Notes under the pieces: generated by a model
What the model was told of the DNA's origin: nothing
The model's database searches: none
Seen by the model: the letters and a program-made list of their open reading frames with translations, nothing else
Translations under genes and position numbers: made by a program
Shown: positions 14,329 to 64,000 of the stretch, piece by piece
How the letters are laid out: each line of letters starts with the position of its first letter
Numbering within the stretch: the stretch's first letter is position 1
Assembly (NCBI GenBank): GCA_030648205.1
Contig: JAUSIH010000046.1
Span: 1,370-65,369 of the forward strand
Length of the DNA: 64,000 nucleotides
From: Dehalococcoidia bacterium
GTDB lineage: Bacteria > Chloroflexota > Dehalococcoidia > JAUSIH01
Direction: 5' to 3'

Positions 14329-15369
14329 CTACCTGGCGACCGCGGGGTTCTTGACGCGCTGGATGACCTTGCCCATGGCCTCCAGGAACTGGGGACGCCG
14401 CGCCACGGCCACCGGGCAGCGGAAGAACATCTGGGTGGCGCCCGCCTTGATGCCGCGCTGTATCTGCTCGACGCACTGGTCCGGCGCGCCGGCCACGGCG
14501 AAACGGTTTGCGAGCCACTCCTTCATGCCGGACTGCTCCACCAGCATGGCGTTGTTGTCCACGCCGGCGCTGATGATATTGTGCTCGTGGGCGGCGTACG
14601 CGCTCTGTATCTTCGTGATGGCCGCGTGGAATTCCTTCGGCACGAACTTGCCCTCCAGGGTGAAGCGGAACCCGTGGTTGACGCTTGAGCAGAGGGAGGC
14701 GCGGATTTCGTTGACGGCGGCCTCGCGGCTCTCATGCACGTTGCCTTTGACCAGCCACCAGATGTCCACGTCCTCTATCCGGCGACCCGCCTCTTTCGCG
14801 CCCGCCGCCACCTGCTCACGGAAGTGATGGACCACCTCCGGCGTGATGCCCGCGCCGATGACGACGCCGTCGGCAATCTTGCCGGCGAGCCGCGCCGTCT
14901 TGGGGCCGTCCGCCGCCAGGTAGATGGGCATTTGCTCCTTGGACCAGGCGACGCGGCCCGTGCTGCTCTGCCATTCGACCGCTTCGCCGCGGAAGAGGGC
15001 GCGCAGGGCGTGCACGTAGCGCTCCATGTCGGCCAGGCTCGCGGGGCGCATCTTGAGGTTCTGCAGGGCGCTGTCGCCGGAGCCGAAGCCGAGCGCGACG
15101 CGGTTCCCGAACATACGCCGCAGGGTGCCCACGGCGCTGACGGTCACCGCGGGGTGCCGCGTCCACGGGTTGGTGACCCAGGGCGCGACCATCTTGCCCT
15201 TGGTGTTCAAAAGGCAGTGGGTCATGAGGACGTACAGCTCGCCGTAGACGGACTGCGAGTCCGGCACGCCAACGAAGTCGAAGGGCTGCTGGTCAATGAT
15301 GCGGACGGTGTGGACGTAGTCCTCCGGTGTGTCCCCCCAGGAGATGATGCCGAACTTCGCGTTTGCCAC
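14329..15369 (-). CDS. LLM-class F420/flavin-dependent oxidoreductase, paralog 3
   Basis: 346-aa LLM signature (GVPDSQSVYGELYV, GFGSGDSAL, ADGPKTARLAGKIADGVVIG). Confidence 0.8.
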   Translation of the reverse strand: MANAKFGIISWGDTPEDYVHTVRIIDQQPFDFVGVPDSQSVYGELYVLMTHCLLNTKGKMVAPWVTNPWTRHPAVTVSAVGTLRRMFGNRVALGFGSGDSALQNLKMRPASLADMERYVHALRALFRGEAVEWQSSTGRVAWSKEQMPIYLAADGPKTARLAGKIADGVVIGAGITPEVVHHFREQVAAGAKEAGRRIEDVDIWWLVKGNVHESREAAVNEIRASLCSSVNHGFRFTLEGKFVPKEFHAAITKIQSAYAAHEHNIISAGVDNNAMLVEQSGMKEWLANRFAVAGAPDQCVEQIQRGIKAGATQMFFRCPVAVARRPQFLEAMGKVIQRVKNPAVAR

Positions 15370-27340: not shown

Positions 27341-29389
27341 ATGCCGAACCGTCTGGTGAACGAGACAAGCCCTTACCTGCGCCAGCACGCGCATAACCCG
27401 GTGGACTGGTACCCGTGGGGCGAGGAGGCGCTGCAAAAGGCGCGGGCGGAGGACAAGCCCATCCTGCTGAGCATCGGGTACTCCGCGTGCCACTGGTGCC
27501 ACGTGATGGAGCGGGAGTCCTTCGAGGACCCGGCCATCGCGCGCCAGATGAACGAAGGCTTCGTCTCCATCAAGGTGGACAGGGAGGAGCGTCCCGACCT
27601 GGACGCGGTCTATATGCAGGCAGTCCAGGCCATGACCGGCCGGGGCGGCTGGCCGCTCACGGCTTTCCTGACGCCGGACTGCAAGCCCTTCTATGGCGGC
27701 ACCTACTTCCCGCCGGAGGACCGCCACGGCGGCCCCGGCTTCCCGCGCGTGCTGGCGGCGGTGGTCGAGGCCTACCATACGAAGCGGGCCGACCTGACGC
27801 GCGCCGCCGATCAGCTCGTGTCCAAGCTCCGAGAGAGCACGGACGTGCGCACCGACGGCGCGGCGCTTACCGCGGACCTCTCGCAACGGGCCTACAGCAC
27901 CATTTACGCCGGTTTTAATCGGCAGTCGGGCGGCTTCGGCGCGGCACCCAAGTTCCCCCAACCGATGACGCACGAGTTCGTGCTGCGTTCCTGGGCCCGC
28001 ACCCGCGACCCGGAGGCCCTGGAGATGGTGGAGTTCACGCTGGCCGTGATGGCGATGGGCGGCATCTACGACCACCTCGGCGGCGGGTTCCATCGCTACT
28101 CCACGGACGACATTTGGCTGGTCCCGCACTTCGAGAAGATGCTCTACGACAACGCCCTCCTTGCGCGGCTGTACCTGCACGCCTACCAGGCGACGGGCAG
28201 GCCGTTCTATCGGCGCGTCGCTGAGGAGACGCTGGACTACGTGCTGCGCGAGATGACCAGCCCGGAGGGCGGGTTCTATTCCAGCCAGGATGCGGACAGC
28301 GAGGACGTGGAGGGCAAGTTTTACGTCTGGACACCCCGGCAGGTCAGGGACATCCTGGGCAAGGACGGCGACGTCTTTTGCCGCTACTTCGACGTCACGG
28401 AACAGGGCAACTTCGAGGGGCAGAACATCCTGCACGTGCTCACGCCGCCGGACGCGCTGGCGCGGGAGATGGGCGTGCCGGAGGACGAGATGGCCCGCGT
28501 CGTGGGCGAAGGACGTCGCAAGCTGCTGGAGGCCCGCCGGAAGCGCGTGCCCCCAGCCCGCGACGACAAGGTGCTGACCGCGTGGAACGCCATGACTCTT
28601 CGAAGCCTCGCGGAGGCGGCGGCCGTGCTGGGTCGCGACGACTATCGCCGGGCGGCGGTCGCTAACGCCTCTCTCCTCCTGACCGCGCTGCGTCCCCAGG
28701 GCCGCCTGCTGCGCTCGTACAAGGACGGCCAGGCGCGCGGCAAGGGCTACCTGGAGGACTACGCGTGCCTTGTGGACGGGCTGCTCGCCCTCTACGAGGC
28801 CACCTTCGAGCGGCGGTGGTTCGACGAGGCGCGCTCGCTGGCGGACCAGATGCTTGAGCTGTTCTGGGAGCCGGCGCAGGGCGTCTTCTACGACACGGGC
28901 CGCGACCATGAGGCGCTCGTGTTCCGTCCCCGCGACGTCTTCGACAACGCGACGCCTTGCGGCGGGTCGGTGGCCGCGGACGTCCTGCTCCGCCTGGCGA
29001 CGCTGACCGGCGAGGAGAGCTACGCCAGCCGCGCCGTGGCGGCCCTCGACTCCGTGCACGGCCATATGACTCAGTACCCGCTGGGCCTCGGACACTGGCT
29101 CTGCGCGCTCAGCTACCATCTGGCGACGCCCAAAGAGATCGCCATCATCGGCCCGCGCGACCATCCGGCCACCCGCGCCCTGGCGCACGCCGCGCACCGG
29201 CCCTTCGTTCCGCACAAGGTTATCGCCGGGTGCGCCCCGGACGACTCTTCCGCGGAAGGGGATGGCATCCCGCTGCTCAAGGGCAGGGGCATGGTCAACG
29301 GGCGTCCCACGGCCTATGTCTGCGAGCGGAACACCTGTAAGCTCCCCGTCACCGATCCGGATGCGCTGCTCAAGCAGATGGGGGAGTAG
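27341..29389 (+). CDS. thioredoxin-domain protein YyaL-like (DUF255 N-terminal Trx-like domain plus six-hairpin glycosidase-like C-terminal domain)
   Basis: [45 protein letters not shown] is the signature N-terminus of the family; 682 aa. Confidence 0.85.
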
Positions 29390-30124
29390 ATGGAGCGTCC
29401 CGTCCAGTTTGCAAGCGACGGCCTGCGCGTCAGGGGCGACATGCATATTGTCGGCCCCGCTGCTCCGTGGGTGGTCATGTCGCATGGGCTGGAGAGCAGC
29501 AAAGACGGGGACAAGTGGCCCGTGCTGGCGGGCGCGCTCGTCCAGGTGGGCATCAGCGCGCTGCGGTTTAACCATCGCGGCTGCGGCCAGGGCCCACAGG
29601 CCAGCGAGGGTGCGTTCCAGGACACGACGCTGACCGGACGCATCGCCGATTTCCGCGCCGCGCTGGACATGGCGGCCTCAACGGCAGGAGACGGCCCCGA
29701 TCGTATCGGGGCGGTAGGATCCAGCTTCGGCGGGATGGTCGTCGCGGCGGCGCGCGACCCGCGGGTGCGTGTACTGGCCCTGCTGGCGACGCCCGTGGCG
29801 ATACCCGCGCCCGCCGCGCAGGAGATCGTGGACGGCTACCACTACCTCCAGTCGGGCAGCCGCCTCTGCGCGGGGTTCTTCCGGGACGTGGCGCGGTACG
29901 ATATACTGGCGGCGGTGCGGGACTTCCGTGGGCCTGTCCTGGTGGTGCACGGCGACAGGGACGACGTGGTGCCGGTGGAGCATGCGGTGCGTCTGCACGA
30001 CGCCGCTCGCGGCCCGAAGCGGCTTGAGGTCATCCCAGGCGCCGACCACGTCTTCAGTGCGCCGGAGCACCGTGAGCGGGCCGTCGCGCTGTGCGTGGAG
30101 TGGTTCAAGACTCATCTTGCCTGA
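29390..30124 (+). CDS. alpha/beta-fold hydrolase
   Basis: VVMSHGLES...GSSFGGMVV (nucleophile elbow GxSxG)...VVHGDRDDVVP...GADHVF (catalytic His). It abuts the yyaL-like gene. Confidence 0.75.
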   Translation: MERPVQFASDGLRVRGDMHIVGPAAPWVVMSHGLESSKDGDKWPVLAGALVQVGISALRFNHRGCGQGPQASEGAFQDTTLTGRIADFRAALDMAASTAGDGPDRIGAVGSSFGGMVVAAARDPRVRVLALLATPVAIPAPAAQEIVDGYHYLQSGSRLCAGFFRDVARYDILAAVRDFRGPVLVVHGDRDDVVPVEHAVRLHDAARGPKRLEVIPGADHVFSAPEHRERAVALCVEWFKTHLA

Positions 30125-30138
30125 GCAAGGAGACGTCC

Positions 30139-30660
30139 GTGACTCTACAGTCGTTCCTGTCCACGTCCCTGAAGGAGCTGCATCAGTGTCTGGACGACGC
30201 CACCAGAGGGCTGACGTCGGAGCAGCTCCACTGGCGGCCCGGGGGTCGGGTGAACCACATCGGATTCACGCTCTGGCACTACGCACGCACGCAGGACAAC
30301 GTCATCCGATTCGTCGTTCAACGCCGGCCCACCATCTGGATGGAGGGCGGATGGGACAAGCGGTTCGGCCTGGACTCCAAGTCCCAAGGAACGGGCATGA
30401 GCCAGGAGGACGCCTTCAAGCTCCGCATCAACTCGCTCGACGACTTCCGTACGTATATGCGCCAGGTCTTCAAGGAGACCGAGGCCTACGTCGCGAACGT
30501 CCAGGAGGCGGAGCTGGAGCGCATGCTGCTGGTCAAGCCGCTCGGGGAGATGCCTGTGCGACAGGTGCTGGGCAGGCCCGTTGTGACCCACGGCTTCGGC
30601 CACCTGGGGGAGATATACACCATCCGCAGTGCGATGGGCATGCCGGGGAACCCCATCTAG
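30139..30660 (+). CDS. DinB/YfiT-like (DinB_2) four-helix-bundle metal-dependent protein
   Basis: A GTG start at 30139 with the SD aaggagacg avoids overlap with the upstream gene. The protein has HIGFTLWHYARTQD and a C-terminal HGFGHLGEIYTIR, both DinB_2-type His motifs. Confidence 0.65.
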   Translation: MTLQSFLSTSLKELHQCLDDATRGLTSEQLHWRPGGRVNHIGFTLWHYARTQDNVIRFVVQRRPTIWMEGGWDKRFGLDSKSQGTGMSQEDAFKLRINSLDDFRTYMRQVFKETEAYVANVQEAELERMLLVKPLGEMPVRQVLGRPVVTHGFGHLGEIYTIRSAMGMPGNPI

Positions 30661-30768: not shown

Positions 30769-31380
30769 ATGGCCGTAGCCACAACCATCCGCATGAAGTC
30801 GCCCGTCGCCAGTGCGCCGGACACCAGGAACCGCCTCGCGCCGCTCGTGGACGACGTGCGCGGCAAGGCAGCCGGTTTCCGCGTCCAGTGGAGCAGCTTC
30901 GACGTGTTCATGAAACGCTTTGAGGAGCTGCTGATGGAGCGCAAGCAGCCGCGGTCCGTCCATATCATGGACCAGAACTGGGAGTCTCCCGCCGTCATCA
31001 AGAAGGGCCTCAAGATGAATTACGCGGACCCGGGCTGGGCCAAAGAGTGGGACGAGTTCGCCAAGAACGCGGACTGGGCGGTGGTTGGGTTGGCGGCCTG
31101 AGGCGGCTGCACCTCGTGGAGTATCCACGACACGGTCGAAGCCCAGAAGCGCGGCATCCCGACTGTGACCATCGTCACCGAGCAGTTCGTCAGCCTCGCC
31201 AAGAGCGTCGCGAAGTCCATGGGCTATCCCGACCTGCCGATGGTGGTCGTCCCGCACCCGTTCGAGACCCTTTCTCACGACACGATCCGCAAGATCGCGG
31301 AAGAGAAGTACGACGAGATTCTCTCCAAGGTGCAGAAGGCCAAGGAAGTGCGCGTGCCCGCCCAGGGCGCGGCCTCGTAG
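30769..31380 (+). CDS. putative selenoprotein with a UxxC redox motif (UGSC-family-like); in-frame TGA at 31099-31101 read as Sec
   Basis: ORFs 30769-31101 and 31165-31380 are in the same frame, joined only by the TGA. The joined product reads ...WAVVGLAA-U-GGCTSWSIHDTVEAQKRGIPTVTIVTEQ.... A hairpin tcgtgga-gta-tccacga begins 13 nt after the TGA. Confidence 0.6.
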
Positions 31381-35674: not shown

Positions 35675-36112
35675 CTACCGCATCCCGCCGAAGCCCGTGA
35701 CCGTCACGCGCGTCTGGAAGTCGCGCTGGTCGTCCGTCCACAGGGTCTTCAGATAGCCTATGACCTGGCGCACCTCGTTCGGCGAGAGGCCGTCCCGCCA
35801 CGAGGGCATCCCCGCCGCTGTCCCGCGCGTGATGGTGCGGAACAGGTTGTCGTCCGTGTGCTCGTAGGCGTGGCCGGTCGCGTTCAGCGGCGGGCCGATC
35901 AGACCGCGTCCCTCGACGCCGTGGCATATCTGGCAGCGCTCCACGAAAACCAACTGTCCCGCTGAGGGCGCTTCCGGAGCGGAGGGGGCCATCGCCTGGG
36001 CGGGCGCGGCGCAGCCCGACAGCAGGAGCAGGGCGAGGGCCGCGCCCCTTCCACGGAAGGGCCAGGTCGTGGCGCTAGGCCGCCGGGCCGGACTGCACGG
36101 ACGCGGGGACAT
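35675..36112 (-). CDS. c-type cytochrome (class I, single CxxCH) lipoprotein
   Basis: Lipobox LLLSGCAAP and haem-binding CQICHG...GMPSW (distal Met). The start overlaps the upstream rSAM gene by 37 bp, so the true start may be later. Confidence 0.75.
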   Translation of the reverse strand: MSPRPCSPARRPSATTWPFRGRGAALALLLLSGCAAPAQAMAPSAPEAPSAGQLVFVERCQICHGVEGRGLIGPPLNATGHAYEHTDDNLFRTITRGTAAGMPSWRDGLSPNEVRQVIGYLKTLWTDDQRDFQTRVTVTGFGGMR

Positions 36113-37211
36113 AGACGCAGGATGGGTCGGATTCCAGGTAGTCGCCGGTGAGGCCGTAGGCGCGGGCGCGGGAGCCGCCGCAGACGCCGCGGAACTCGCA
36201 GGCGCCGCACCTGCCCTTGAGCAGCACCGGGTTGCGCAGCGCGGTGAAGAGCGCGGAGTGGCGATAGACCTCGGCGACGGGCTGCTCGCGCACGTTGCCC
36301 GCGGAGAGCTGCAGGAACCCGCTGGGATAGATGTCCCCCGTGTGGGAGATGAAGCAGAAGCCCTTGCCGTCGTTGACGCCCTGGTCGCGGGGCGCCCGCC
36401 CCTCGCGGAAGGCGTAGCCCGCGCCGGTCAGCTCCCACTCCACGCCGCCGCTCGGCTGCGCCTGCCGCGTGCGCTGGATGACCACGCGCCGGTAGTGCGG
36501 CGCCGCCGTGGTGCGGACGGCGAAGGAGGCCGTGCGCGAGAGGTCGTAGAGCCAGTTGAAGGTCGCTTCGTGCTCCCGCGCCGTCACCATGTCCGACATC
36601 TGGCCGCGTCCCGTCGGCACCAGGAAGAAGACGCTCCAGACGCGCGCGCCCACGGACGCCACGTGCTCTGCGATGGCCGGCAGGTCGCCGATGTTGTAGC
36701 GGCTGACCGTCGTGCCGACTTGCAGGGGGATGCCCAGCTCCTTGATGCTGTTCAGGACATCCAGGGTGCGCTGAAAAGAGCCGCGCACCCCGCGAAAGGC
36801 GTCGTGCACCTCTGGACGGGAGCCGTCCAGGCTGATGTGCACCATGTCTACGCCCGACTCTCTGGCCCGCGCCAGGTTCTGGGACGTCGCCAGTGCGGTG
36901 GCGCTGGGCGACAGGCCGACGCGCAGGCCCTTGCCGGATGCGTAGCGGATGATATCGAAGACGTCGCGCCGCATCAGGGGGTCGCCGCCGGTGACGATAA
37001 GGATGGGCTTGCCCATCTCCACGATCTGGTCAACGACGCGGAGGGCCTCCTCCGACGACAGCTCGCGCGGGTCGCGCTTGGGCTGGGCCGTGGCGCGGCA
37101 GTGCACGCACGCCAGAGCGCAGGCGCGGGTCACCTCCCACGCCAGTGTGAACGGCGTGACGTTGAAGTCCACGTCGAAGTAGTGGGGGCGTGGCGGAACG
37201 CGGTCAGGCAT
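36075..37211 (-). CDS. radical SAM/SPASM-domain enzyme (AhbC/AhbD/NirJ-like haem-modifying family candidate)
   Basis: CALACVHCRA (CxxxCxxC), GGDPLMRRD and a C-terminal SPASM Cys cluster (CGACEFRGVCGGSRARAY...SCVY). Confidence 0.8.
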   Translation of the reverse strand: MPDRVPPRPHYFDVDFNVTPFTLAWEVTRACALACVHCRATAQPKRDPRELSSEEALRVVDQIVEMGKPILIVTGGDPLMRRDVFDIIRYASGKGLRVGLSPSATALATSQNLARARESGVDMVHISLDGSRPEVHDAFRGVRGSFQRTLDVLNSIKELGIPLQVGTTVSRYNIGDLPAIAEHVASVGARVWSVFFLVPTGRGQMSDMVTAREHEATFNWLYDLSRTASFAVRTTAAPHYRRVVIQRTRQAQPSGGVEWELTGAGYAFREGRAPRDQGVNDGKGFCFISHTGDIYPSGFLQLSAGNVREQPVAEVYRHSALFTALRNPVLLKGRCGACEFRGVCGGSRARAYGLTGDYLESDPSCVYVPASVQSGPAA

Positions 37212-38391
37212 TGGTCGAAGCCCCGGCTGCCTGGACGATACGGTCGGGCGCGATGCCCAACTCGGCGTCCGTCAGGTAGCAGGCGGGGTCCTCCGCCCAC
37301 ATGTCGCCGAAGGTGGACTCGGCGCGCACGCGCAGATTGCCGTTGCAGATGTCGAAGTAGGGGCACGCGCCGCACCGCCCGTGGATGCGCCCCTTGCGGT
37401 GGCGCAGGCCCTGAAGCAACGGGTTGGACGCATCCTCCCAGATCTGGCTGAAGGGCCGCTCTCGGACGTTGCCCAGGGTGAGGTGCCACGAGAACTGGTC
37501 CGGGTGGACGTTGCCCATGTAGTCAATGCAGCCGATGCCTGACCCGGCGCTGTTCCCGCCGTTGCGGCGGAGCAGGGCCAGCACCTCGGCGGCGCGCGTC
37601 GGCTGGTCGCGCAGAAGGCGCAGGTAGAGGTACACGGCGTCCGTGTGGTTGTCCACGGTCAGGAACTCCAGGCCGGGGCGCACGTTGGCCCGCGCGTGCG
37701 CGAAGATGGTGTCCACCGCGTCCCGCGTCTCCTGGTGCGTGAGGTCGTAGTTGACGATGCGCTGCCCGCGCCCGGCGTACGCCAGGTGATAGACACAGCA
37801 GCGGTCCGCCCCTTCGCTCTCGGCGAGGCGCAGGACGGCCTCAAGCTGGTCGTAGTTAAGGCGCGTGAGAGTGAAGCGGACGCCGACGCGGACGCCCGCG
37901 GCGCGCGCGTGGCGCAGCCCCGCCATGGACGCCTGGAACGCGCCCTTGGAGCCGCGGAACTTGTCGTGCGCGCCCTCCAGCCCGTCGAAGCTGATGCCAA
38001 TGTAGCTCAGTCCTGCTCCGGCCAGTTCCCGCGCGGCGTCGGGCGTGAGCAGCGTGCCGTTGGTGGAGAGGACGGGGACCATGCCTTTGCTCGCGGCATG
38101 TCGCACCAGGGACAGCAGGTCAGGGCGCAGGAGCGGCTCGCCGCCGGAGAGGAGGAGCACGGGAGCGCCGTACGCGGCCAGGTCGTTAATGACGCCGAGC
38201 GCCTCGTCCGTGGTCAGTTCGCCGGGGAAAGGACGGTCGGCGGCGCCCGCATAGCAGTGCGCGCAGTGCAGGTTGCAGCGCCGGGTGATGTTCCATACGA
38301 CCACGGGCCGGTGGTGGACACGCTCGCCCGTATAGCGCAGGTGGTCTCCCCGCGCCGGCATGCCGCCGAGGAGACGGGTAACGTTAAGCAT
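37204..38391 (-). CDS. radical SAM/SPASM-domain enzyme, second paralog (AhbC/AhbD/NirJ-like candidate)
   Basis: CNLHCAHCYA, SGGEPLLRPD and a SPASM region (GRCGACPYFDICNGNLRVRA...DPACY). It overlaps the neighbouring rSAM gene by 8 bp. Confidence 0.8.
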   Translation of the reverse strand: MLNVTRLLGGMPARGDHLRYTGERVHHRPVVVWNITRRCNLHCAHCYAGAADRPFPGELTTDEALGVINDLAAYGAPVLLLSGGEPLLRPDLLSLVRHAASKGMVPVLSTNGTLLTPDAARELAGAGLSYIGISFDGLEGAHDKFRGSKGAFQASMAGLRHARAAGVRVGVRFTLTRLNYDQLEAVLRLAESEGADRCCVYHLAYAGRGQRIVNYDLTHQETRDAVDTIFAHARANVRPGLEFLTVDNHTDAVYLYLRLLRDQPTRAAEVLALLRRNGGNSAGSGIGCIDYMGNVHPDQFSWHLTLGNVRERPFSQIWEDASNPLLQGLRHRKGRIHGRCGACPYFDICNGNLRVRAESTFGDMWAEDPACYLTDAELGIAPDRIVQAAGASTNA

Positions 38392-41349: not shown

Positions 41350-41473
41350 GCAACCTCCGGGCGCAACGTGCGCATTATAGCACAGGCGTAGCTATCCGCA
41401 GCCACTTGAGCCTTATGCACAATTCAGACACGAGGAAGACTGGATGTTGAAAAAAGGGCGCTTTAATTTACAC

Positions 41474-41518
41474 ACACATATCTGCTAGCTAGAGCTTGCA
41501 AAGCTAGCAGATATGTGT
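41474..41518. repeat. perfect 17-bp inverted repeat (acacatatctgctagct / agctagcagatatgtgt) with an 11-bp spacer, in an AT-rich intergenic region
   Basis: The arms at 41474-41490 and 41502-41518 are exact reverse complements, and each arm contains the palindrome GCTAGC. Confidence 0.6.
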
Positions 41519-41651
41519 TATAGTGACAGCGGGAAAGTGGCTATGCCCCTTGCGGGGCATACCTCATATTAACGGCCCCTGGATTCTCAACCAGGGCGTC
41601 GCCTGACCACCGATAGACCAGGGGTGTGTCATTGGACATGCCTCCTTTCCA

Positions 41652-41697
41652 GGCCCTAGAGGACGTCCGCAAAACAGACTCTAGGGCCTCTTTTTTA
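41652..41697 (+). terminator. intrinsic terminator-like hairpin (ggccctagag...ctctagggcc followed by TCTTTTTT), functional in + orientation; it overlaps the stop codon of the minus-strand gene 41695-42243
   Basis: 10-bp GC-rich stem, 16-nt loop and a T6 tract on the + strand. No + strand CDS lies upstream. Confidence 0.4.
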
Positions 41698-42243
41698 TCC
41701 CAAACGGGCCGTCTGCCCCGGTGTTTGGCTAAGATAAGAACGTTGAGCCTCAGCTTTGGAAGTCTTCCTGTGATATTTGTTTCTGGGTAGACCTTCCCAA
41801 AGCTCGTTTCTCGCTCCGGCTCTGAGTGTTCCGACGAGAGAATGCTTAGCGCGAAGCCTGTCTCTGTCATTGTCAATCTCATAAATCCGTTCAACCAGCG
41901 CATTTGCATGCATGACCTCATCGGTCTCGCCCAAGATGGAAGACACGATTTGGGTTAGCGACATGCCTTCCCACTCTGCACGTCTTACCGGCATATCCTT
42001 CGACCTATTTCCAGGTTTTCCAACGCCCCCCTTGGGCGTCAGTTCGTGCAACTGGATCGGCGACAGATTATGAGCTACCAACAGACTATTCAATTGCTGA
42101 ACATACGCCTTGCACTTTTCAAGACGAAGCGTCACCCTTTTAGCTTCGTGAACAAGCTGCGAGTACTCGCGTTGCTTTTCTGCCGCCTGCTGCAGCAAAG
42201 CTTCTTCAAAGGTCGTTTGTCTCTCGCTGCTGTTCTGATTCAT
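41695..42243 (-). CDS. hypothetical protein (182 aa; N-terminal coiled coil) in a low-GC segment
   Basis: An uninterrupted ORF with AT-rich codon usage that contrasts with its flanks. No recognisable catalytic motifs. Confidence 0.45.
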   Translation of the reverse strand: MNQNSSERQTTFEEALLQQAAEKQREYSQLVHEAKRVTLRLEKCKAYVQQLNSLLVAHNLSPIQLHELTPKGGVGKPGNRSKDMPVRRAEWEGMSLTQIVSSILGETDEVMHANALVERIYEIDNDRDRLRAKHSLVGTLRAGARNELWEGLPRNKYHRKTSKAEAQRSYLSQTPGQTARLG

Positions 42244-42379
42244 GACGTTCTCCTATGAGCGGTACACTTGAGAGTATAACAGGTCGATGAAATTAACGCA
42301 AGAGGAAATGTGCGACAGCCATCGCCAGCGAAAAAAAACAGGTATTTCTGAACATGCATATTTGGCATAGTGTTGGTAG

Positions 42380-42600
42380 TGGTAGACGCGGTGGACGGCA
42401 CTAGACGGCACTAGGCAATACTAGACGATGCGAGACAGTGGTAGACAGTGATACACAGTGATGCATGGTGATATACGGTGATACATGGTGATACACGGTG
42501 ATGCATGGTGATGCACGGTAAGGCACCGAGACGCACAGCGGTAGACAGTGCAATAGTCGCGAATCTGGTGAACGGGGTCACGACAGCGGCAATGGCGGGG
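42380..42600. repeat. array of ~20 degenerate 10-bp tandem units (RGTGATRYAY / ctagacggca-like), i.e. helical-period repeats
   Basis: ...agtgatacac agtgatgcat ggtgatatac ggtgatacat ggtgatacac ggtgatgcat ggtgatgcac ggtaaggcac... Confidence 0.6.
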
Positions 42601-42816
42601 AAATCTGCTATGCAGCTTTCTGGGCCAGGCTGGTGAGTGTGTTGCCACTGTTTGCGCATGATGGTGATGGCGGACTAGGGACAGCGAATGTAGGTCTTCC
42701 AATTGCCACGTATGCGGCATGGAGTTCAATTTCCGGTGGCCCCTTCGGGCGAGAAAGTACACTACCCCCTTGCCACGTCTTCTCGCGTCTGCCACAATGC
42801 CTGCAGGAGGATACCT

Positions 42817-43443
42817 ATGTCTGAGACTATCGCGTTCGACGTGTACTGCGACTACACCTGACCCTACGTGCACACGGCGGCCGTCTGGCTCGCCGATGTC
42901 CGGAAGGCGCTGGGCGACCGTTTGGTGGTCACCTGGCGCTACTTCTCGCTGGAGCAGGTGAACAGCCAGGAGGGGCCTGAGTGGAAGCTGTGGGATCAGC
43001 CGGACTCGTACCATAGCAAGGGTCGCCTGGCGTTCCACGCCGCGGAGTCGGCCCGCCGTCAGGGGCCGGACGCCTTTGAGCGTCTGCACATGGGGCTTCT
43101 GAAGGCGAGGCACGAGGATGGCAAGAGCCTGGCGGAGCGCGCGGTGGTGCTGGACGTGGCGCAGCGCGCGGGGCTGGACACGGCCCGCCTGGAGAGAGAC
43201 CTGGGCGACCGCTTGCTGCTGCGACGCCTGGGGGAGGACCACACGCACGCGGTGGAGAAGTACGGCGTCTTTGGTACGCCCACGCTGGTCTTCGCCAACG
43301 GCGGCGCCGCGTACCTGAAACTGCGGCCCGCGCCGCCGGCCCAGGACGCGTTGCGCGTGTTTGAGAACCTTCACCAGTTCATCGCCGGATGGCCCTTCAT
43401 CGTCGAGGTGAAGCGGCCCACGCCGGGCGCACGGCCTCGGTAA
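42817..43443 (+). CDS. DsbA / kappa-GST / HCCA-isomerase-like thioredoxin-fold protein with an in-frame TGA (42859-42861) at the active-site nucleophile position: putative selenoprotein
   Basis: ATG at 42817 with a strong SD aggagg 6 nt upstream. The product reads MSETIAFDVYCDYT-U-PYVHTAAVWLADV..., continuous with ORF 42868-43443. U-P-Y aligns with the C-P-W-C / S-P-Y-S catalytic motif of the family. A hairpin acgg-cgg-ccgt begins 13 nt after the TGA. Confidence 0.6.
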
Positions 43444-57770: not shown

Positions 57771-58244
57771 ATGGCGACTGCCCTGGCGGATGTCATCGCC
57801 GCTTTGAAGAAAGAGTCTGAAGTCACCGTCCTCTCCGCCCTCATCGAAGTCCAGGAGCAGCTTCACTACCTGCCGCCCGAGTCCATCCCCGCCGTCGCTG
57901 AGCTGACCGGCCTTTCCGTCAACGACGTGTACACGGTCGCCACGTTCTATACCCACTTCCGCTTCAGTCCACCCGGAGAGCACGTCGTCGAGGCGTGCTG
58001 GGGCCCGTCCTGCCACCTGCGCGGCGCTTCGGAGGTGATGGCCGCCATCGAGAAGGCGGTGGGCGCGACGTTCGACAGCGATACGCCCGACGGCAAGTTC
58101 ACGCTGCGCAGGCTCTCGTGCGCGGGCGCCTGCGGCCACGGGCCGGTGGTCGTGCTGGACCACAAGATGCGCGGCAACATAGGCCCGGCGGACGTGACCG
58201 CCTTTGTTGAGCAGGCACGGAAGTCCGGCGGCGAGCATCATTAG
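57771..58244 (+). CDS. NuoE-like [2Fe-2S] thioredoxin-fold subunit (formate dehydrogenase gamma / HoxE-like)
   Basis: CWGPSCHLRG...CAGACGHGPVVV: the four-Cys 2Fe-2S motif of NuoE/FdsG. Confidence 0.85.
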   Translation: MATALADVIAALKKESEVTVLSALIEVQEQLHYLPPESIPAVAELTGLSVNDVYTVATFYTHFRFSPPGEHVVEACWGPSCHLRGASEVMAAIEKAVGATFDSDTPDGKFTLRRLSCAGACGHGPVVVLDHKMRGNIGPADVTAFVEQARKSGGEHH

Positions 58245-58261
58245 GCGAGGGTGAGGAAGCG

Positions 58262-59992
58262 ATGCCGAGCACATACGATGAGTTGAAGCGACGCGCCCTC
58301 GCCGAAGCGCAGGTAGCGGGCCTGGGCGGCAGGCCCGTCATCACGGTGGGCATGGGCATCTGCGGCGTCTCCGCGGGCGCCCGCGAGGTGTACGCCGCCC
58401 TCCAGGATGAGCTGAAGAAGCAGGGCGTTGACGCCGTGCTGCATCCGGTGGGCTGCGTCGGGTTCTGCTACGCGGAAACGCTGGTGGACATCGCCCGGCC
58501 CGGACAGCCGCGCATATCGTACAAGAACATCACGCCGGAGCGCGTGCCGGAGCTGGTCCGCGACGCCGTCACGGGCGCCAACCTCCGCTCCGACCTGGCC
58601 CTGGGCGCATGGGGCGCATCGCCGTCGCCGGCCATTCCGAACATCCATGAGTTCCCGGAGTGGAAGCACCAGGTCCGCATCGCCACGCGCAACTGCGGCG
58701 TCGTGGACCCGGAGAACACACTGGACTACATCGCACGGGGCGGGTATGCCGCGCTGAACAAGGCGCTGTTCGACATGAAGCCCGACCAGGTCATTGACGA
58801 GGTCATCAAGTCGAACCTGCGTGGTCGCGGCGGCGCGGCCTTCCCGACGGGCCAGAAGTGGAAGTTCCTGGCGGGCTCGCCCGGCCCGGTCAAGTACATC
58901 CTCTGCAACGGGGAAGAGGGCGACGCCGGCGCGTTCAACGACAAGGCGCTGCTGGAGAGCGACCCGAACACCGTGCTTGAGGGAATAATCCTGGCCGGTT
59001 ACGCCACACGGGCCACCAAGGGGTACATCTTCATCCGCTGCGAACACTGGCTCCCCATCCAGCGGGCGCGTCGCGCCATCAAGCAGGCGTATGATCTGGG
59101 TATCCTGGGCAAGAACATCATGGGCTCTGAGTTCAGCTTTGACGCCGCGGTAGCCCAGACGGGGGAGTCCTACGTCTCTGGTGAGGAGACAGCCCTGATG
59201 GAGGCCATCGAGGGCAGGCGCGCCATGCCGCGCCCGCGACCGCCGTTCCCCGCGGCGGTCGGACTTTGGGGCAAGCCCAGCAACATCAACAACGTGAAGA
59301 CATACTCGTATGTGCCAGAGATAGTGGCCAGGGGCGGCGCGTGGTACGCCTCCGTTGGCAGTGAGCGCAGCAAAGGCACGGGCCTGGTCTGCCTCTCCGG
59401 CGATATTCGCAAGCCCGGCCTATATGAGCTGCCCTTCGGTCTGCCGCTGACCGCCGTCATCCGGGACGTCGGCGGAGGCTGTCCGGACGGCAAGAAGGTC
59501 AAGTTTCTCCAGACCGGCGGCCCGCTGGGCGGCTTCCTGCCCGCCTCGCTGATGGAAAAGACGCCCATGGACTTCGATGCCATGAACGCCACGGGCGCCA
59601 TGTTCGGCTCCGGCGGCATCATCGTCGGCAGCGAGGACGCGTGCGTGGTGGATGTGACCAGGGTGCTGACCGAGTTCAACGCGGACGAGTCCTGCGGCAA
59701 GTGTTTCCCGTGCCGCCTGGGCACGCACCACATCAACCAGATCATGAGCCGCATCGCCGAGGGCAAGGGCAGGCCCCAGGATATGCAGACGGCGCTGGGC
59801 CTGGCGCCGAGCCTGGCGGCGTCGCTGTGCGCCCACGGCCAACTGGCCACGAATCCCATACGCACCGCCTATCAATACTTCAAGGATGAGATCGAAGCGC
59901 ACATCAAGGAAAGACGCTGTCCCGCGGGCCGGTGCGCCGCCATGCGGTCCCACGGGTCGGGAGCGCTCGCGGGCGCCGGCAACAAGCGGTAG
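58262..59992 (+). CDS. NuoF-like NAD(H)- and FMN-binding subunit (formate dehydrogenase beta / HoxF-like) with an N-terminal Trx-like extension
   Basis: GRGGAAFPTGQKWKF (FMN site), ILCNGEEGDAGAF (NADH site) and a C-terminal 4Fe-4S motif ESCGKCFPCRLG. Confidence 0.85.
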   Translation: MPSTYDELKRRALAEAQVAGLGGRPVITVGMGICGVSAGAREVYAALQDELKKQGVDAVLHPVGCVGFCYAETLVDIARPGQPRISYKNITPERVPELVRDAVTGANLRSDLALGAWGASPSPAIPNIHEFPEWKHQVRIATRNCGVVDPENTLDYIARGGYAALNKALFDMKPDQVIDEVIKSNLRGRGGAAFPTGQKWKFLAGSPGPVKYILCNGEEGDAGAFNDKALLESDPNTVLEGIILAGYATRATKGYIFIRCEHWLPIQRARRAIKQAYDLGILGKNIMGSEFSFDAAVAQTGESYVSGEETALMEAIEGRRAMPRPRPPFPAAVGLWGKPSNINNVKTYSYVPEIVARGGAWYASVGSERSKGTGLVCLSGDIRKPGLYELPFGLPLTAVIRDVGGGCPDGKKVKFLQTGGPLGGFLPASLMEKTPMDFDAMNATGAMFGSGGIIVGSEDACVVDVTRVLTEFNADESCGKCFPCRLGTHHINQIMSRIAEGKGRPQDMQTALGLAPSLAASLCAHGQLATNPIRTAYQYFKDEIEAHIKERRCPAGRCAAMRSHGSGALAGAGNKR

Positions 59993-60010
59993 AGATAGGA
60001 GACGGCGACC

Positions 60011-62761
60011 ATGACCCAGCAGCAGAGCAAGCTGGTTACCCTCACCGTTGACGGTGTCGAGGTCAAGGTGCCGCCGGGGACCACTATCCTGGAAGCGGCC
60101 AAGCAGGTGGGCATCAACATACCGTACCTGTGCTACCACCCCATGCTCAAGCCCTACGGCGCTTGTCGCATGTGCGTGGTGGAGGTGGAGAAGCAGCGCG
60201 GTCAGCCTGCCTCCTGCACCTCGCCTGTCTCCGAGGGCATGATGGTCAAGACCAACACTCCGGACGTGCAAAAGACGCGCAATGACATCATGGACCTTGT
60301 CCTGTCCGAGCACCCCCACGGCTGTCTCACATGCTGGCGCGTGATTCACTGCGGGCCGGAGGACATCTGCCTGCGCAACGTCAGCGTCATTGATCGGTGC
60401 GTCATCTGCCCCAAGAACTATCGCTGCGAGCTTCAGTTCATGGCCTGGGACTTCAAGGCGAAGGACACGCCCCTGGGCTATCACTACCGCAACATCCCGC
60501 TGTGGAACAAGAATCCCCTCATCGACCACGACATGAACCTGTGCATCGTCTGCGGGCGCTGCGTCCGCGCCTGCAACGAGATAGAGGGCGTGGACGCCAT
60601 CGTCTTCATCCAGCGGGGCGGCAGGACCATCGTGGGCACGTCGCAGGCCGGCAGTCTGGCGGAGTCCGGCTGCACCTTCTGCGGCGCGTGCGTGGACGTC
60701 TGTCCCGTGGGCGCTATCGTGGAGAAGGACAGCAAGTGGGCCGGCCCGGCGCGGCGCACCGCCACGACGATATGTCCGCATTGCCCTGTGGGCTGCCAGC
60801 TCGGCGTGGGCCTGGACAAGGACGGCAAGATCATCCGTGTCATGCCTGACCTGGACGGCCCCGTGAACCGGGGCCACGCCTGCGCTTGGGGGAAGTTCGG
60901 CATCGTGGACTACGTGCACAGCAAAGATCGGCTGACGACTCCGCTTGTCCGCAAGGACGGTCAGCTTGTGCCCGCCACATGGGACGAGGCGCTGGAGGCC
61001 GCGGCCAGGGCCTTCGCCTCCCACACGGGAAGCGAGGTCGGAGTCGTCGCTTCGCCGCGCTCCACCAACGAGGACCTGTTCGTCCTGCAGAAGTGGGCGC
61101 GGGTCGTCGCGCTGACTAACAACATTGACCATACTGACCACATGTTCCTGCCCAGCTCGCCGCAGGGCATCTCCAGGGCCCTCGGCGGCGCGCAGATGAC
61201 GGGGAACTGGCAGGACATTGAGAAAGCAACCTGCCTCCTGGCCGTGGGCGCGGACCTGATGGCGGACCAGCCGGTCATCGGGGCGCGTGTGCGCAAGGCG
61301 GTCCAGCGTGGCCAGAAGCTCATCGTCGTGGACCCGCGCCGCACCGAGTCGGCGCTGCTCTCCACTGTGTGGCTCCGGAACAGGCCCGGCACAGAGGTGG
61401 CCGTCCTGGGCGGCATCATGCGCGTCCTCCTGGACGAGCGCCTGTGGAACGCGGCGTACGTGGAGCAGAGGTGCGAGGACTTCGCTGTCGTGCAGAAGGC
61501 GGTCGCCGCTTTCGACCTGGACACCGTCGAGAAGACAACGGGCGTGCCGAAGGCCCACATTGAGCTGGCGGCGCGCCTGCTGGCGAAAGCCAGCCCTCCG
61601 TGCATCGTCTATTCCGCGCGCACGAATTTGCCCGGTCACGACACGGACATAGCGGCGGCGCTGGCGGACATGGCCCTGCTCACCGGCGCCATCGGCCGGC
61701 CGGGCGGAGGGCTGAACATCATGCGCCGCGAGGCGAACGGACAGGGCGCCACGGACATGGGATGCGTGCCTATCGCCCTGCCCGGCTCCGGGCATCTGGA
61801 CGACGTGGCTGCGCGCACTCCGTTCGAGCGGGTGTGGGGCAAGGCCCTGCCCAGTCAGCCGGGGTTTTTCGTTCGGGATATGCTGGCCGCCGCGCGCCAG
61901 GGTAGCCTGAAGGCCATGCTCGTCGTGGGGAACGGCGACCTGGCGGCCCGCTACGCCGCCTACGGAGCGGAGGAAGCGCTGCGGTCGCTGAAGGCGCTGG
62001 TGGTGGTGGACATGGCGATGACGGATATGGCCCGGCGGGCGGACGTCGTTCTGCCCGCGGCCTCGTTCGCCGAAGCGGACGGCAGCTATACCAACGTGGA
62101 ACGGCGTATCCAGCGGCTGCGCAAGGTCCTGGACGCGCCCGGGCAGGCCAAGCCTGCCTGGTGGATTATCGCCAAGCTGGCGGAGAAGGCCGGCGCTCAG
62201 GGGTTCGACTATCACGCGCCCGTTGATGTGCTGAAGGAGATCACCGGCCTGGTCCCCACCTACGAGGGCGTCACCTACGCGGGCATCGAGCGGGGCGGCC
62301 TCCAGTGGCCGGTCGCCGGAGCGCGACACGCAGGCACACCCATCCTCCATACCGAGACGTTCTCGCGCGGCAAGGGCCGCTTCCAGCCGTTCCAGCACAA
62401 GGCGCCGCAAGCGCCGCTCGCGGACGGACGCCTGACCGTGATGACGGCGCTCATGCGTGAGATTGCGGGCGTGCGGGAGCTGAAGCACAGGAACCTGGCG
62501 GAGGTGCACCCGGAGGACGCCGCGGCCCTTAAGCTTGTGGAAGGGGACCTGGTGGCTGTTCAGACCCCCGCGGGCGTCGTTGAGGCCCATATCAGGGTGA
62601 CGGCCGAGGCGGCCAGAGGCTATGTGATGCTGAGCCTCTCCATGGGCGATGTGGAGCCGCCAGCCATCCTCTCCCAGCCCGTCGGCAACCCTGCCGCGGC
62701 TCTTGCGGATATCGTCGTTGCGCACGTGGCGCTGGAAAAAGCGGCGGCGCCCGTGGTATAA
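60011..62761 (+). CDS. NAD-dependent formate dehydrogenase alpha subunit-like molybdopterin oxidoreductase (NuoG-type N-terminal Fe-S domains plus Mo-bisPGD catalytic domain; Cys-type, not Sec-type)
   Basis: N-terminal 2Fe-2S (CYHPMLKPYGACRMC), 4Fe-4S clusters (CIVCGRCVRAC; CTFCGACVDVCP) and CPHCPVGCQ. The catalytic region RGHACAWGKFG has Cys at the Sec/Cys position, and the MopB and C-terminal molybdopterin-binding domains complete the protein. Confidence 0.85.
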   Translation: MTQQQSKLVTLTVDGVEVKVPPGTTILEAAKQVGINIPYLCYHPMLKPYGACRMCVVEVEKQRGQPASCTSPVSEGMMVKTNTPDVQKTRNDIMDLVLSEHPHGCLTCWRVIHCGPEDICLRNVSVIDRCVICPKNYRCELQFMAWDFKAKDTPLGYHYRNIPLWNKNPLIDHDMNLCIVCGRCVRACNEIEGVDAIVFIQRGGRTIVGTSQAGSLAESGCTFCGACVDVCPVGAIVEKDSKWAGPARRTATTICPHCPVGCQLGVGLDKDGKIIRVMPDLDGPVNRGHACAWGKFGIVDYVHSKDRLTTPLVRKDGQLVPATWDEALEAAARAFASHTGSEVGVVASPRSTNEDLFVLQKWARVVALTNNIDHTDHMFLPSSPQGISRALGGAQMTGNWQDIEKATCLLAVGADLMADQPVIGARVRKAVQRGQKLIVVDPRRTESALLSTVWLRNRPGTEVAVLGGIMRVLLDERLWNAAYVEQRCEDFAVVQKAVAAFDLDTVEKTTGVPKAHIELAARLLAKASPPCIVYSARTNLPGHDTDIAAALADMALLTGAIGRPGGGLNIMRREANGQGATDMGCVPIALPGSGHLDDVAARTPFERVWGKALPSQPGFFVRDMLAAARQGSLKAMLVVGNGDLAARYAAYGAEEALRSLKALVVVDMAMTDMARRADVVLPAASFAEADGSYTNVERRIQRLRKVLDAPGQAKPAWWIIAKLAEKAGAQGFDYHAPVDVLKEITGLVPTYEGVTYAGIERGGLQWPVAGARHAGTPILHTETFSRGKGRFQPFQHKAPQAPLADGRLTVMTALMREIAGVRELKHRNLAEVHPEDAAALKLVEGDLVAVQTPAGVVEAHIRVTAEAARGYVMLSLSMGDVEPPAILSQPVGNPAAALADIVVAHVALEKAAAPVV

Positions 62762-62886: not shown

Positions 62887-64000
62887 ATGACCACTATAGC
62901 GACTGAGGCGCCCAAGAAGAAAGCACAAATTCGCCTTGTAGCTCCGTGCACACGCGACTGCCCCGCGGGCATTGACATCCCGCGGTACATAGGCTACGTG
63001 CTGCAGGGCCGTTACTCGGAGGCGATGGCTGTCGTACGTGAGCGGATGCCGTTTCCCTCGGTGTGCGCGCACGTCTGCTACCGCCCCTGCGAGACCGGAT
63101 GCCGTCGCAGCAAGCTGGACGAGCCGGTGGCCATTAACGCGCTCAAACGCGTGGCCGCGGACAACGACGTGAAGAAGGTCTGGCGGCGTGACTGGAAGCT
63201 CGCCCCGCCCACGGGCCGGCGCGTTGCCATTGTCGGCTCGGGGCCCGCGGGGCTCACCGCCGCGTACTACCTGTCGAAGGTGAAGGGACACGGCGTCACC
63301 ATCTTCGAGGCGCTGCCGGAGCTGGGCGGGCAACTGCGCATCGGCATACCGGCGTACCGCCTGCCACGCACGCTGTTGGACGAAGAGATCGACATCATCG
63401 TGGAGGCGGGCGTCAAGGTCGTCCGCAACACGCGGCTGGAGCGCCCGACCGACCTGCTGGACATGGGGTTCAACGCCGTGCTCATTGCCTGCGGCACGAT
63501 GAAGCCGAACACGATGGGCATCCCCGGCGAGGACCTGTCGGAGGTCATTGACGGCGTGCGCTTCCTGGCTGACGCCAACTTGGGCCGCCGCACATCCGTC
63601 GGCGCGCGTGTCGCGATCATCGGCGGCGGCAACGTCGCCCTCGACTGCGCGCGGGTGGCGCTGCGCCTGGGTGCCCAACACGCCGTCATCATCTACCGGC
63701 GCACCCGGCAGGAGATGCCCGCGTATGACTTCGAGGTTGAGGAGGCGGTGCGCGAGGGCGTGGACCTGATGTACCTGGCGTCGCCGCAGAAGATTGAGCA
63801 GGTGGGCGGCGCGCTGCGGCTCCATCTCCAGCGGATGCAACTCGGTGAGCCGGACGCGTCGGGCCGTCGCCGCCCCGTGGCCGTCCCGGGTGAGACGTTT
63901 ACCATGGATGTGGACAACGTTCTTGCGGCCATCGGGCAGTCGGCGGACACCGCGCCGTTCGGCCTGGATGTGAACAAGGACGGCACGATCAAGGCGGAAA
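62887..64000 (+). CDS. GltD-like NAD(P)H-dependent FAD/Fe-S oxidoreductase (glutamate synthase small-subunit family), partial at the window end
   Basis: N-terminal Fe-S region (CTRDCPAGIDIPRYI...CAHVCYRPCETGC), then VAIVGSGPAGLTAAYYL (FAD) and VAIIGGGNVALDCA (NAD(P)H). The ORF runs off the window end. Confidence 0.8.
   Translation, partial: MTTIATEAPKKKAQIRLVAPCTRDCPAGIDIPRYIGYVLQGRYSEAMAVVRERMPFPSVCAHVCYRPCETGCRRSKLDEPVAINALKRVAADNDVKKVWRRDWKLAPPTGRRVAIVGSGPAGLTAAYYLSKVKGHGVTIFEALPELGGQLRIGIPAYRLPRTLLDEEIDIIVEAGVKVVRNTRLERPTDLLDMGFNAVLIACGTMKPNTMGIPGEDLSEVIDGVRFLADANLGRRTSVGARVAIIGGGNVALDCARVALRLGAQHAVIIYRRTRQEMPAYDFEVEEAVREGVDLMYLASPQKIEQVGGALRLHLQRMQLGEPDASGRRRPVAVPGETFTMDVDNVLAAIGQSADTAPFGLDVNKDGTIKAE

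Follow-up and report, generated by a model that had tools for sequence, protein, structure and literature searches.

Introduction

Both the bacterial mechanism that relies on a selenocysteine insertion sequence (SECIS) and the existence of DsbA-like selenoproteins are well established. The first DsbA-like selenoproteins to be reported, with selenocysteine (Sec, U) in a UxxC motif, came from the Sargasso Sea (Zhang, Fomenko and Gladyshev 2005, PMC1088965), and such proteins were later counted in 41 organisms (PMC5029168). A 2026 catalogue distinguishes form 1 (UxxC) from form 2 (DxxUP), PF01323 (Zhang et al. 2026, PMC13188914, citing Peng et al. 2016). In Deinococcus radiodurans the protein DR_2335 (DR2335), which has Cys, has been described in reviews as DsbA-like, with one conserved Cys, and as predicted to be cytoplasmic (PMC8945050, PMC6300522); for this protein and its structure (PDB 7DK9) our literature search found reviews only and no primary paper. 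Here we describe a gene of this kind in a 64,000-nucleotide stretch of DNA from a Dehalococcoidia bacterium (assembly GCA_030648205.1, contig JAUSIH010000046.1, positions 1,370 to 65,369), which is referred to below, at its full length, as the window. The gene, at positions 42817-43443 of the window, is DsbA-like and, with a probability that we put at about 0.9 from its sequence and its relatives, encodes a selenoprotein in which the TGA at codon 15 would be read as Sec. A first-pass annotation of the DNA had proposed it as a selenoprotein candidate and had described the DsbA-like proteins as a known selenoprotein family, as indeed they have been catalogued since 2005.

Results

Read from 5' to 3', the sequence gives AGGAGG, ATG, fourteen sense codons, an in-frame TGA and then a frame that stays open as far as TAA (Table 1). 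Programs that find open reading frames (ORFs) start the gene instead at GTG 42868, which yields a protein of 191 aa, and the public record of an identical ORF likewise holds this shortened form only. It had been pointed out in the first-pass annotation that an ATG lies 51 nt further upstream, separated from the GTG piece by nothing but the TGA, and that an AGGAGG precedes this ATG with a spacing of 6 nt; both are borne out by the sequence, while no motif resembling a Shine-Dalgarno (SD) site was found 5' of GTG 42868. The extension gained in this way reads MSETIAFDVYCDYT-U-PYV, and the ORF is intact on either side of the TGA, with a strong GC content at third codon positions (GC3) and signs of purifying selection.

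To place the codon among its relatives we used a DNA-level comparison of the best 80 of 455 relatives, which came from a scan of 185,579 species-representative genomes of the Genome Taxonomy Database (GTDB). These 80 loci belong to Thermomicrobiales, Dehalococcoidia, SAR202 and a few metagenome-assembled genomes (MAGs) with other labels, and nearly all are Chloroflexota. At the motif codon TGA was found in 59 of the 80 loci and TGC or TGT in the remaining 21; TAA or TAG occurred in none of the 80, and neither did Ser, the residue being Sec or Cys always. Carriers of the Sec form include the cultured Thermalbibacter longus CFH 74404 (L022) and the complete chromosomes CP070842.1 and OZ252215.1. 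Since the same codon is TGA in 59 related loci, its presence in frame goes far beyond chance. Upstream of the motif codon, the 14 codons show conservation at the protein level throughout the 80 loci, in the Sec and Cys groups alike. Among the Sec forms the nucleotide diversity at codon positions 1, 2 and 3 was 0.37, 0.35 and 0.53 upstream of the TGA and 0.35, 0.25 and 0.56 downstream of it; third positions are thus the most variable upstream of the TGA, which points to coding periodicity there. An in-frame start with an SD-like motif was present 8-30 codons 5' of the TGA in 42 of 59 Sec sequences (58 loci and the window), and the other listed Sec sequences have in-frame upstream starts too; the distance from start to TGA is most often 14 codons, as in the window. 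The two nearest relatives, L081 and L083, which come from groundwater metagenomes and are 89-90% identical, retain SD, ATG and TGA alike, and upstream of the TGA the differences from the window fall mainly on third codon positions. A neighbour-joining tree of 77 sequences shows Sec and Cys forms intermingled, with five or more switches between the two. Such alternation of Sec and Cys is typical of catalytic redox sites (PMC1794560).

The 208-aa product was searched, with U written as C, against Pfam and NCBIfam. It was shown to match the Pfam DSBA domain (PF01323) with 45 bits, against a cut-off of 25.6 bits, over residues 8-162 and profile positions 3-174 of 191, the match beginning upstream of the TGA; the Rv2466c-like model PF22234 was matched marginally (30.7 bits against a cut-off of 27), and no NCBIfam model matched the product. 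A search of 5.8 billion proteins returned 422 relatives, nearly all from Chloroflexota MAGs, whose lengths fall into two groups. Those of ~200-212 aa cover 95-100% of the query and all carry ..(V/I)(Y/F)(Y/F)D(Y/F)x-C-PYV(H/Y)xAAVWL.., the same N-terminus as the window protein, while every one of those of ~170-193 aa begins at the first usable start codon 3' of the motif, which is the pattern to be expected if Sec genes go unrecognised. Cys-containing orthologues with the same N-terminus, which the first-pass annotation had named as a check, are thus at hand, both as full-length proteins of 200-212 aa and in 21 of the 80 loci.

All of 53 full-length Cys homologues have D12 and C15, and nearly all have P16, which gives the motif D-x-x-C-P; the family has in addition two invariant His (His91 and His99) together with an invariant Glu (Glu46) and Gln (Gln47). 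The site of the family is (C/U)-P-Y-V and a second Cys is absent; the window has U-P-Y-V, and almost every one of the 80 loci has Val or Ala at the fourth position, so that the site is not of the CxxC or UxxC type. The earlier claim that the extension restores the canonical N-terminus of the family therefore holds in part, in that D-x-x-C/U-P-Y aligns with the Cys homologues, and fails in part, in that this is not the CPWC or UxxC site of DsbA and FrnE and has no second Cys. The U does fall on the nucleophile position, as had been proposed, since it aligns with the single invariant Cys of the full-length homologues and with Cys24 of DR2335. The only other Cys of the window protein, C11 at -4 of the U, is confined to the window's clade and one further locus (L026), and Cys11 as a conserved resolving residue was rejected at the level of the family. 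Two other loci, L048 (TGA at 10043) and L070 (TGA at 6851), have U-P-Y-C, the sole cases of Cys at the fourth position among the 80; their predicted UxxC pairs bridge the single-residue form and the classical dithiol-type form. No signal peptide was found by inspection, as MSETIAF leads straight into strand β1 without a hydrophobic leader, and the window protein is predicted to be cytoplasmic, with a DsbA-like thioredoxin fold.

As a stand-in for the window protein a structure model of a Cys homologue, P0008, which is 57% identical, was made with AlphaFold (predicted local distance difference test, pLDDT, 96; predicted template modelling score, pTM, 0.92). Strand β1 is formed by residues 5-11 of this model, the loop D-Y-G-C by residues 12-15, with the Cys as residue 15, and helix α1 by residues 16-35. 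The Cys, and by extension the Sec, is placed by the model as the N-cap nucleophile of helix α1 in a thioredoxin fold with a helical insertion. The best structural match was DR2335, with a template modelling (TM) score of 0.88 and a root-mean-square deviation (rmsd) of 2.1 Å, which was also the best sequence match in the PDB (7DK9; phmmer E = 3.6e-18, residues 7-203); its Cys24 aligns with U15, and it is this Cys24 that the depositors mutated to Ser (C24S, 7DKA). After DR2335 the structural neighbours of the model were Rv2466c, YjbH, Gram-positive DsbAs, kappa-GST and HCCA isomerase.

Just past the UGA, inside the coding sequence (CDS), lies a putative bacterial SECIS hairpin (Table 1). In the Sec forms the hairpin of the family has a fixed place, with columns 17-24 (numbered from the U of UGA) pairing with columns 36-29 around a 4-nt loop, G25-U26-Y-U, and the loop of the window likewise has G25 and U26. 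The hairpin of the window's clade, CGGCGGCC-GUCU-GGC(U)CGCCG, is a variant that has a bulged U, keeps the loop position of the family and is identical in all three members. Folded alone, it reaches -16.4 kcal/mol (z = -2.5), a stability equalled by 1 of 200 shuffles; the hairpins of three other Sec forms folded alone gave z from -2.4 to -3.0, and those of two Cys forms z of about +0.4 to +0.55.

Because the hairpin overlaps the A-A-V-W-L codons and the Cys forms encode a similar peptide, the Cys forms (18 sequences) were taken as the pairing control for the Sec forms (55 sequences). Each of the five core pairs was formed in 47-55 of the 55 Sec forms against 10-16 of the 18 Cys forms, and over all cells 78% were paired in the Sec forms against 59% in the Cys forms. 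The mean hairpin energy was -10.8 kcal/mol in the Sec forms and -8.2 kcal/mol in the Cys forms (Mann-Whitney p = 0.002), despite a slightly higher GC content in the latter. Codon choice differs as well: Ala codon 6 is GCA in 41/55 Sec forms and 2/18 Cys forms, Leu codon 10 is CTG in 52/55 and 7/18, and codon 8, the source of the G-U of the loop, is Val in 54/55 and 7/18. At the two basal pairs the Sec forms alternate between UA, CG, AU and GC, and the observed covariation score was reached by none of 500 shuffles, a count that is not to be read as a probability. As the hairpin is made of the A-A-V-W-L codons of helix α1, this stretch is constrained by RNA and protein both. The small ACGG-CGG-CCGT hairpin that the first-pass annotation had offered as the recoding element can be drawn, but it is incompatible with the longer, conserved hairpin at 42872-42899 and has to give way to it.

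In the SECIS of Escherichia coli fdhF the stem starts from about 11 nt past the UGA, G23 and U24 stand in the apical loop and the stem has a bulged U. The hairpin of the window is similar in that it lies within the CDS, begins 11 nt past the UGA, presents a G-U apical loop about 24 nt downstream and has a bulged U; it differs in its sequence and in the place of the bulge, which sits on the 3' arm, and its binding of SelB is putative. By analogy with fdhF, the hairpin would recruit SelB with Sec-tRNA(Sec) to a ribosome paused at the UGA.

Elsewhere in the window TGA is the stop of 13 other genes, and the codon is thus not reassigned. A second gene with an in-frame TGA, unrelated to the DsbA-like gene, was found at 30769-31380 (+), where the TGA (31099-31101) stands in ..VVGLAA-U-GGCTSW... 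Its product resembles the UGSC family (seleno)protein model NF041046 of NCBIfam (E = 4e-27, with 95 bits, below the 125-bit cut-off), and the TGA falls on the U of the motif. The coding signal of this gene is strong on both sides of the TGA, ORF finders break it into two pieces, and a 7-bp hairpin with a G23-U24-A25 loop lies 3' of the UGA. We regard it as a second selenoprotein candidate, presumably the one that the first-pass annotation had counted first, and one that would lend indirect support to Sec decoding. A genome without Sec machinery, which the first-pass annotation had named as a refutation, is thus argued against indirectly, by this gene and by published Sec use in the phylum. Published surveys have reported 46-49 selenoprotein genes in Dehalococcoidia MAGs (PMC13326102) and a positive Sec trait in Sphaerobacter, Thermomicrobium, Nitrolancetus and Dehalogenimonas (PMC5029168 supplement), by which the Chloroflexota are documented users of Sec.

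Several results weigh against the reading of codon 15 as Sec. ARAGORN found no tRNA-Sec, neither in the 64-kb window nor in the sequences flanking 51 related loci, and no NCBIfam match to selA, selB or selD was found among essentially all genes of the window. No SECIS model of Rfam matched in the whole window or in a permissive scan of 42790-42970, which returned chance matches only; as Rfam apparently holds no model for this bacterial SECIS, this null result is uninformative. Within a 70-nt context the fold is not unusual for its GC content (z = +0.5), a weakness that is resolved by folding the hairpin alone and by the comparison of Sec with Cys forms. The window's own hairpin departs from the consensus of the family, with a CTC Leu codon and the bulged U, and since it is identical in the window's only two close relatives it offers no covariation evidence within the clade. 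The overlap with conserved codons means that conservation of the hairpin in part reflects the peptide, and the Cys control, at 18 sequences, is small. Lastly, the function of DR_2335, the Cys orthologue, was unreported as of 2022 (PMC8945050).

Table 1. Elements of the DsbA-like gene and their coordinates in the window
Feature	Position	Strand	Remarks
Shine-Dalgarno AGGAGG	42805-42810	+	6 nt 5' of the ATG (42817-42819); kept in L081 and L083
Full CDS, putative DsbA-like selenoprotein	42817-43443	+	208 codons including Sec15; TAA stop at 43441-43443
N-terminal codons MSETIAFDVYCDYT, missed by ORF finders	42817-42858	+	14 codons; strand β1 and the D-x-x loop before the active site
UGA codon, residue 15, the sole conserved redox residue	42859-42861	+	TGA/Cys alternation; aligns with Cys15 of the Cys forms
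GTG (Val18 codon), wrong start in ORF finders and public records	42868-42870	+	no SD upstream
Putative bacterial SECIS hairpin	42872-42899	+	inside the CDS; 11 bp, two bulges
Parts of the hairpin	5' arm 42872-42882; apical loop GUCU 42883-42886; 3' arm 42887-42899	+	bulged U42890 and A42896

Other features of the window

Two further genes were considered as selenoproteins and rejected. The arsenite methyltransferase gene at 1399-2208 (+) (PRK11873, E = 3e-93) gave a partial match to the NCBIfam models of Sec-containing ArsM fusions; it ends in TAG, without a coding continuation. The gene at 27341-29389, which matched 'seleno_TsoB' weakly, encodes a Thioredox_DsbH/DUF255 thioredoxin-domain protein and not a selenoprotein. 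The alpha subunit of formate dehydrogenase is elsewhere the commonest bacterial selenoprotein. In the window a trio of NuoE-like, NuoF-like and formate-dehydrogenase-alpha/NuoG-like genes (157, 576 and 916 aa) occupies 57771-62761 (+), followed at 62887-63999 (+) by an oxidoreductase gene similar to the small subunit of glutamate synthase; the 916-aa member has no in-frame TGA and is thus apparently of the Cys type or another non-Sec version.

Three paralogues resembling LLM-class F420-dependent oxidoreductases are found within 13 kb, at 2466-3482 (+), 6603-7664 (-) and 14329-15369 (-), and a DinB/mycothiol-transferase-like gene lies at 30091-30660. Together with the DsbH gene, these suggest redox chemistry linked to F420 and to low-molecular-weight thiols in the organism. 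A small cytochrome c gene adjoins two radical SAM/SPASM genes that lie side by side at 36075-38391 (-) and are of the AhbC/AhbD/NirJ type, known from alternative haem or haem d1 biosynthesis; this block is syntenic in L081 and L083.

The DsbA-like gene itself is preceded by an insertion of 1.36 kb (~41409-42765) with a GC content of ~52% against ~63% around it, which stops some 40 nt short of the SD. The two closest relatives lack it, their flanks being joined to each other directly, and the junctions of the insertion share only CTTG. The insertion holds a 10-nt unit repeated in tandem about 13 times (42394-42531), an inverted repeat of 17 nt without mismatch (41474-41490/41502-41518) and an ORF of 182 aa at 41695-42243 (-) without a family match, which is also present on an independent 3.3-kb contig, L084.

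Discussion

Since a single redox residue is conserved in the family, namely the Sec that caps helix α1 at its N-terminus, a mechanism of the monothiol (here monoselenol) type appears the most likely. In such a mechanism the selenolate would attack a disulfide, mixed disulfide, sulfenate or other electrophile of the substrate, and an external partner, which might be a thiol of low molecular weight or a reductase of the thioredoxin type, would then resolve the Se-S intermediate with its thiol. The invariant Thr-Pro of a G-T-P-T motif probably forms the cis-Pro loop beside the Sec. As judged from the conserved residues, we consider the odds on this specific monoselenol redox mechanism to be even. 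The gene neighbourhood showed no redox partner; it has housekeeping synteny only, in two stable arrangements, one with the CCA-adding enzyme, RNase III and FtsY and the other with CoaE, an ABC-F ATPase and a MutY-like gene.

It is also conceivable that the protein is a selenoprotein without being a redox catalyst, in which case the Sec, with His91, His99 and acidic residues, would bind a metal or metalloid, or the protein would act as a redox-sensing adaptor similar to YjbH. The single conserved redox residue, the two invariant His with the Glu and Gln, the presence of YjbH and the copper-related ScsC among the structural neighbours, and a neighbourhood of housekeeping genes without a redox partner would all suit such a role. 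Nonetheless, the model puts the Sec at what would be the canonical nucleophile position of the fold, the alternation with Cys is of the kind typical of catalytic redox sites (PMC1794560), and YjbH matches with a TM score of at most 0.66, weaker than the 0.88 of DR2335. A role outside catalysis is therefore rather unlikely, although it is the alternative that fares best.

Far less probable is a decoding of the UGA as something other than Sec, whether a near-cognate or suppressor tRNA inserts Trp, Cys or Gly or the codon is recoded in a context-dependent way that is unrelated to SelB. Such decoding would be in keeping with a window in which no Sec machinery was seen and with the lack of a match to any curated SECIS model, but it does not account for a codon that alternates specifically with Cys, which is the signature of Sec, nor for a hairpin that is conserved, has a G-U loop and follows the UGA at the canonical distance. 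In addition, TGA ends 13 other genes of the window, a second gene, similar to a known selenoprotein family, has TGA at the Sec position, and Sec decoding is documented in the phylum.

Slightly lower still do we place the conventional reading, in which the TGA is a true stop, the 191-aa protein begins with GTG 42868, and the 14 codons ahead of the TGA form a separate short leader ORF or stay untranslated. ORF finders and public records do call the gene in this way, and TGA is an ordinary stop elsewhere in the window; yet a perfect AGGAGG stands before the ATG and no SD before the GTG, the upstream 14 codons show coding periodicity and align residue by residue with the N-terminus of the Cys homologues, neither TAA nor TAG appears at the codon in any of 80 loci, and a protein starting at Val18 would lose strand β1 and its only conserved redox residue. 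A pseudogene or sequencing error, in which a Cys codon (TGC or TGT) was mutated to or misread as TGA, would take a single-base change from TGC, the alternative state in the Cys forms, but this reading is effectively refuted by the comparative data. In 59 independent genomes at species level the codon is TGA; two close relatives recovered from other metagenomes have it too, as does a separate assembly that contains the identical sequence. The frame is unbroken on either side of the TGA, its GC3 is strong and it is under purifying selection, and the RNA hairpin of the Sec forms is lacking in the Cys forms.

Taking the TGA as Sec, the outcome is a corrected annotation rather than a discovery or a new category, since the protein type is already catalogued. 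Dozens of orthologues stand in public databases as 'DsbA family protein' of 170-193 aa, without strand β1 and without the active site, and these shortened entries bias function prediction, structure modelling and counts of the Chloroflexota selenoproteome. What is added here is the ubiquity of the family and the predominance of Sec in the Chloroflexota, the link to the single Cys of DR2335, and the placement of the SECIS in the codons of helix α1. The family would also be further evidence for a heavy reliance of groundwater and soil Chloroflexota on selenium.

The two catalogued forms of DsbA-like selenoprotein each share features with the window protein. Like form 1, it has a DsbA-like fold, Sec as the first residue of the active-site tetrad and a bacterial SECIS directly downstream; unlike form 1, its family has Val in place of the resolving Cys at the fourth position of the tetrad, and U-P-Y-V without a resolving Cys would be unable to close an intramolecular Se-S bond as classical dithiol-type oxidoreductases do. 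With form 2 it shares the PF01323 domain, the sequence D12-Y-T-U15-P16 and the lack of a Cys after the U, a match made by motif description; form 2, whose catalogued exemplar is MDP6049977.1, may be a different subfamily, HCCA-isomerase-like or fused, and the window protein is a stand-alone domain of 208 aa.

We have considered whether these proteins, rather than being catalogued form 2, make up a housekeeping family of their own that spans the Chloroflexota, consists of stand-alone DsbA-like proteins of the monoselenol type and is orthologous to DR_2335; this is a tentative suggestion and on balance an improbable one. If it were true, Sec would be the prevailing and possibly the ancestral state of the family (74% of the best 80 loci, with at least five Sec/Cys switches), and the needs of SelB binding would constrain the protein sequence beside the active site, in the A-A-V-W-L codons. 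The Cys newly gained at -4 in the window's clade (C-D-Y-T-U) would then be an internal resolving thiol, and a mechanism based on one residue would give way to a selenenylsulfide redox pair of the unusual type CxxxU.

Among the more distant relatives, kappa-GST and HCCA isomerase (PDB 1R4W and 2IMD) have the same DsbA-like architecture, with a TM score of ~0.65 and a high rmsd, and their sequence match is marginal and partial (E = 0.003). Their N-terminus, which we take to be ..Y-D-x-x-S-P-Y.., resembles that of the window family, with Cys or Sec in place of Ser. The catalytic residue of these enzymes stands at the same N-cap position; it is Ser in them, unlike the Sec or Cys of the window family. 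Rv2466c, a mycothiol-dependent reductase of Mycobacterium tuberculosis, is also of the cytoplasmic DsbA-like fold (TM 0.71-0.76); it differs in its CPWC dithiol motif, and its identity to the window protein is ~20%. This enzyme works with a low-molecular-weight thiol through its N-terminal Cys.

The closest of the known proteins is DR2335, whose single-Cys D-F-L-C-P-Y-A aligns with D-Y-T-U-P-Y-V of the window; it differs in having Cys rather than Sec, in an identity of 29% and in insertions in the helical domain. In the family the single conserved Cys is usually replaced by Sec, which strongly suggests that the residue serves as the redox nucleophile in catalysis. The link of DR2335, whose structure is solved, to Sec also offers a concrete handle on the function of the family.

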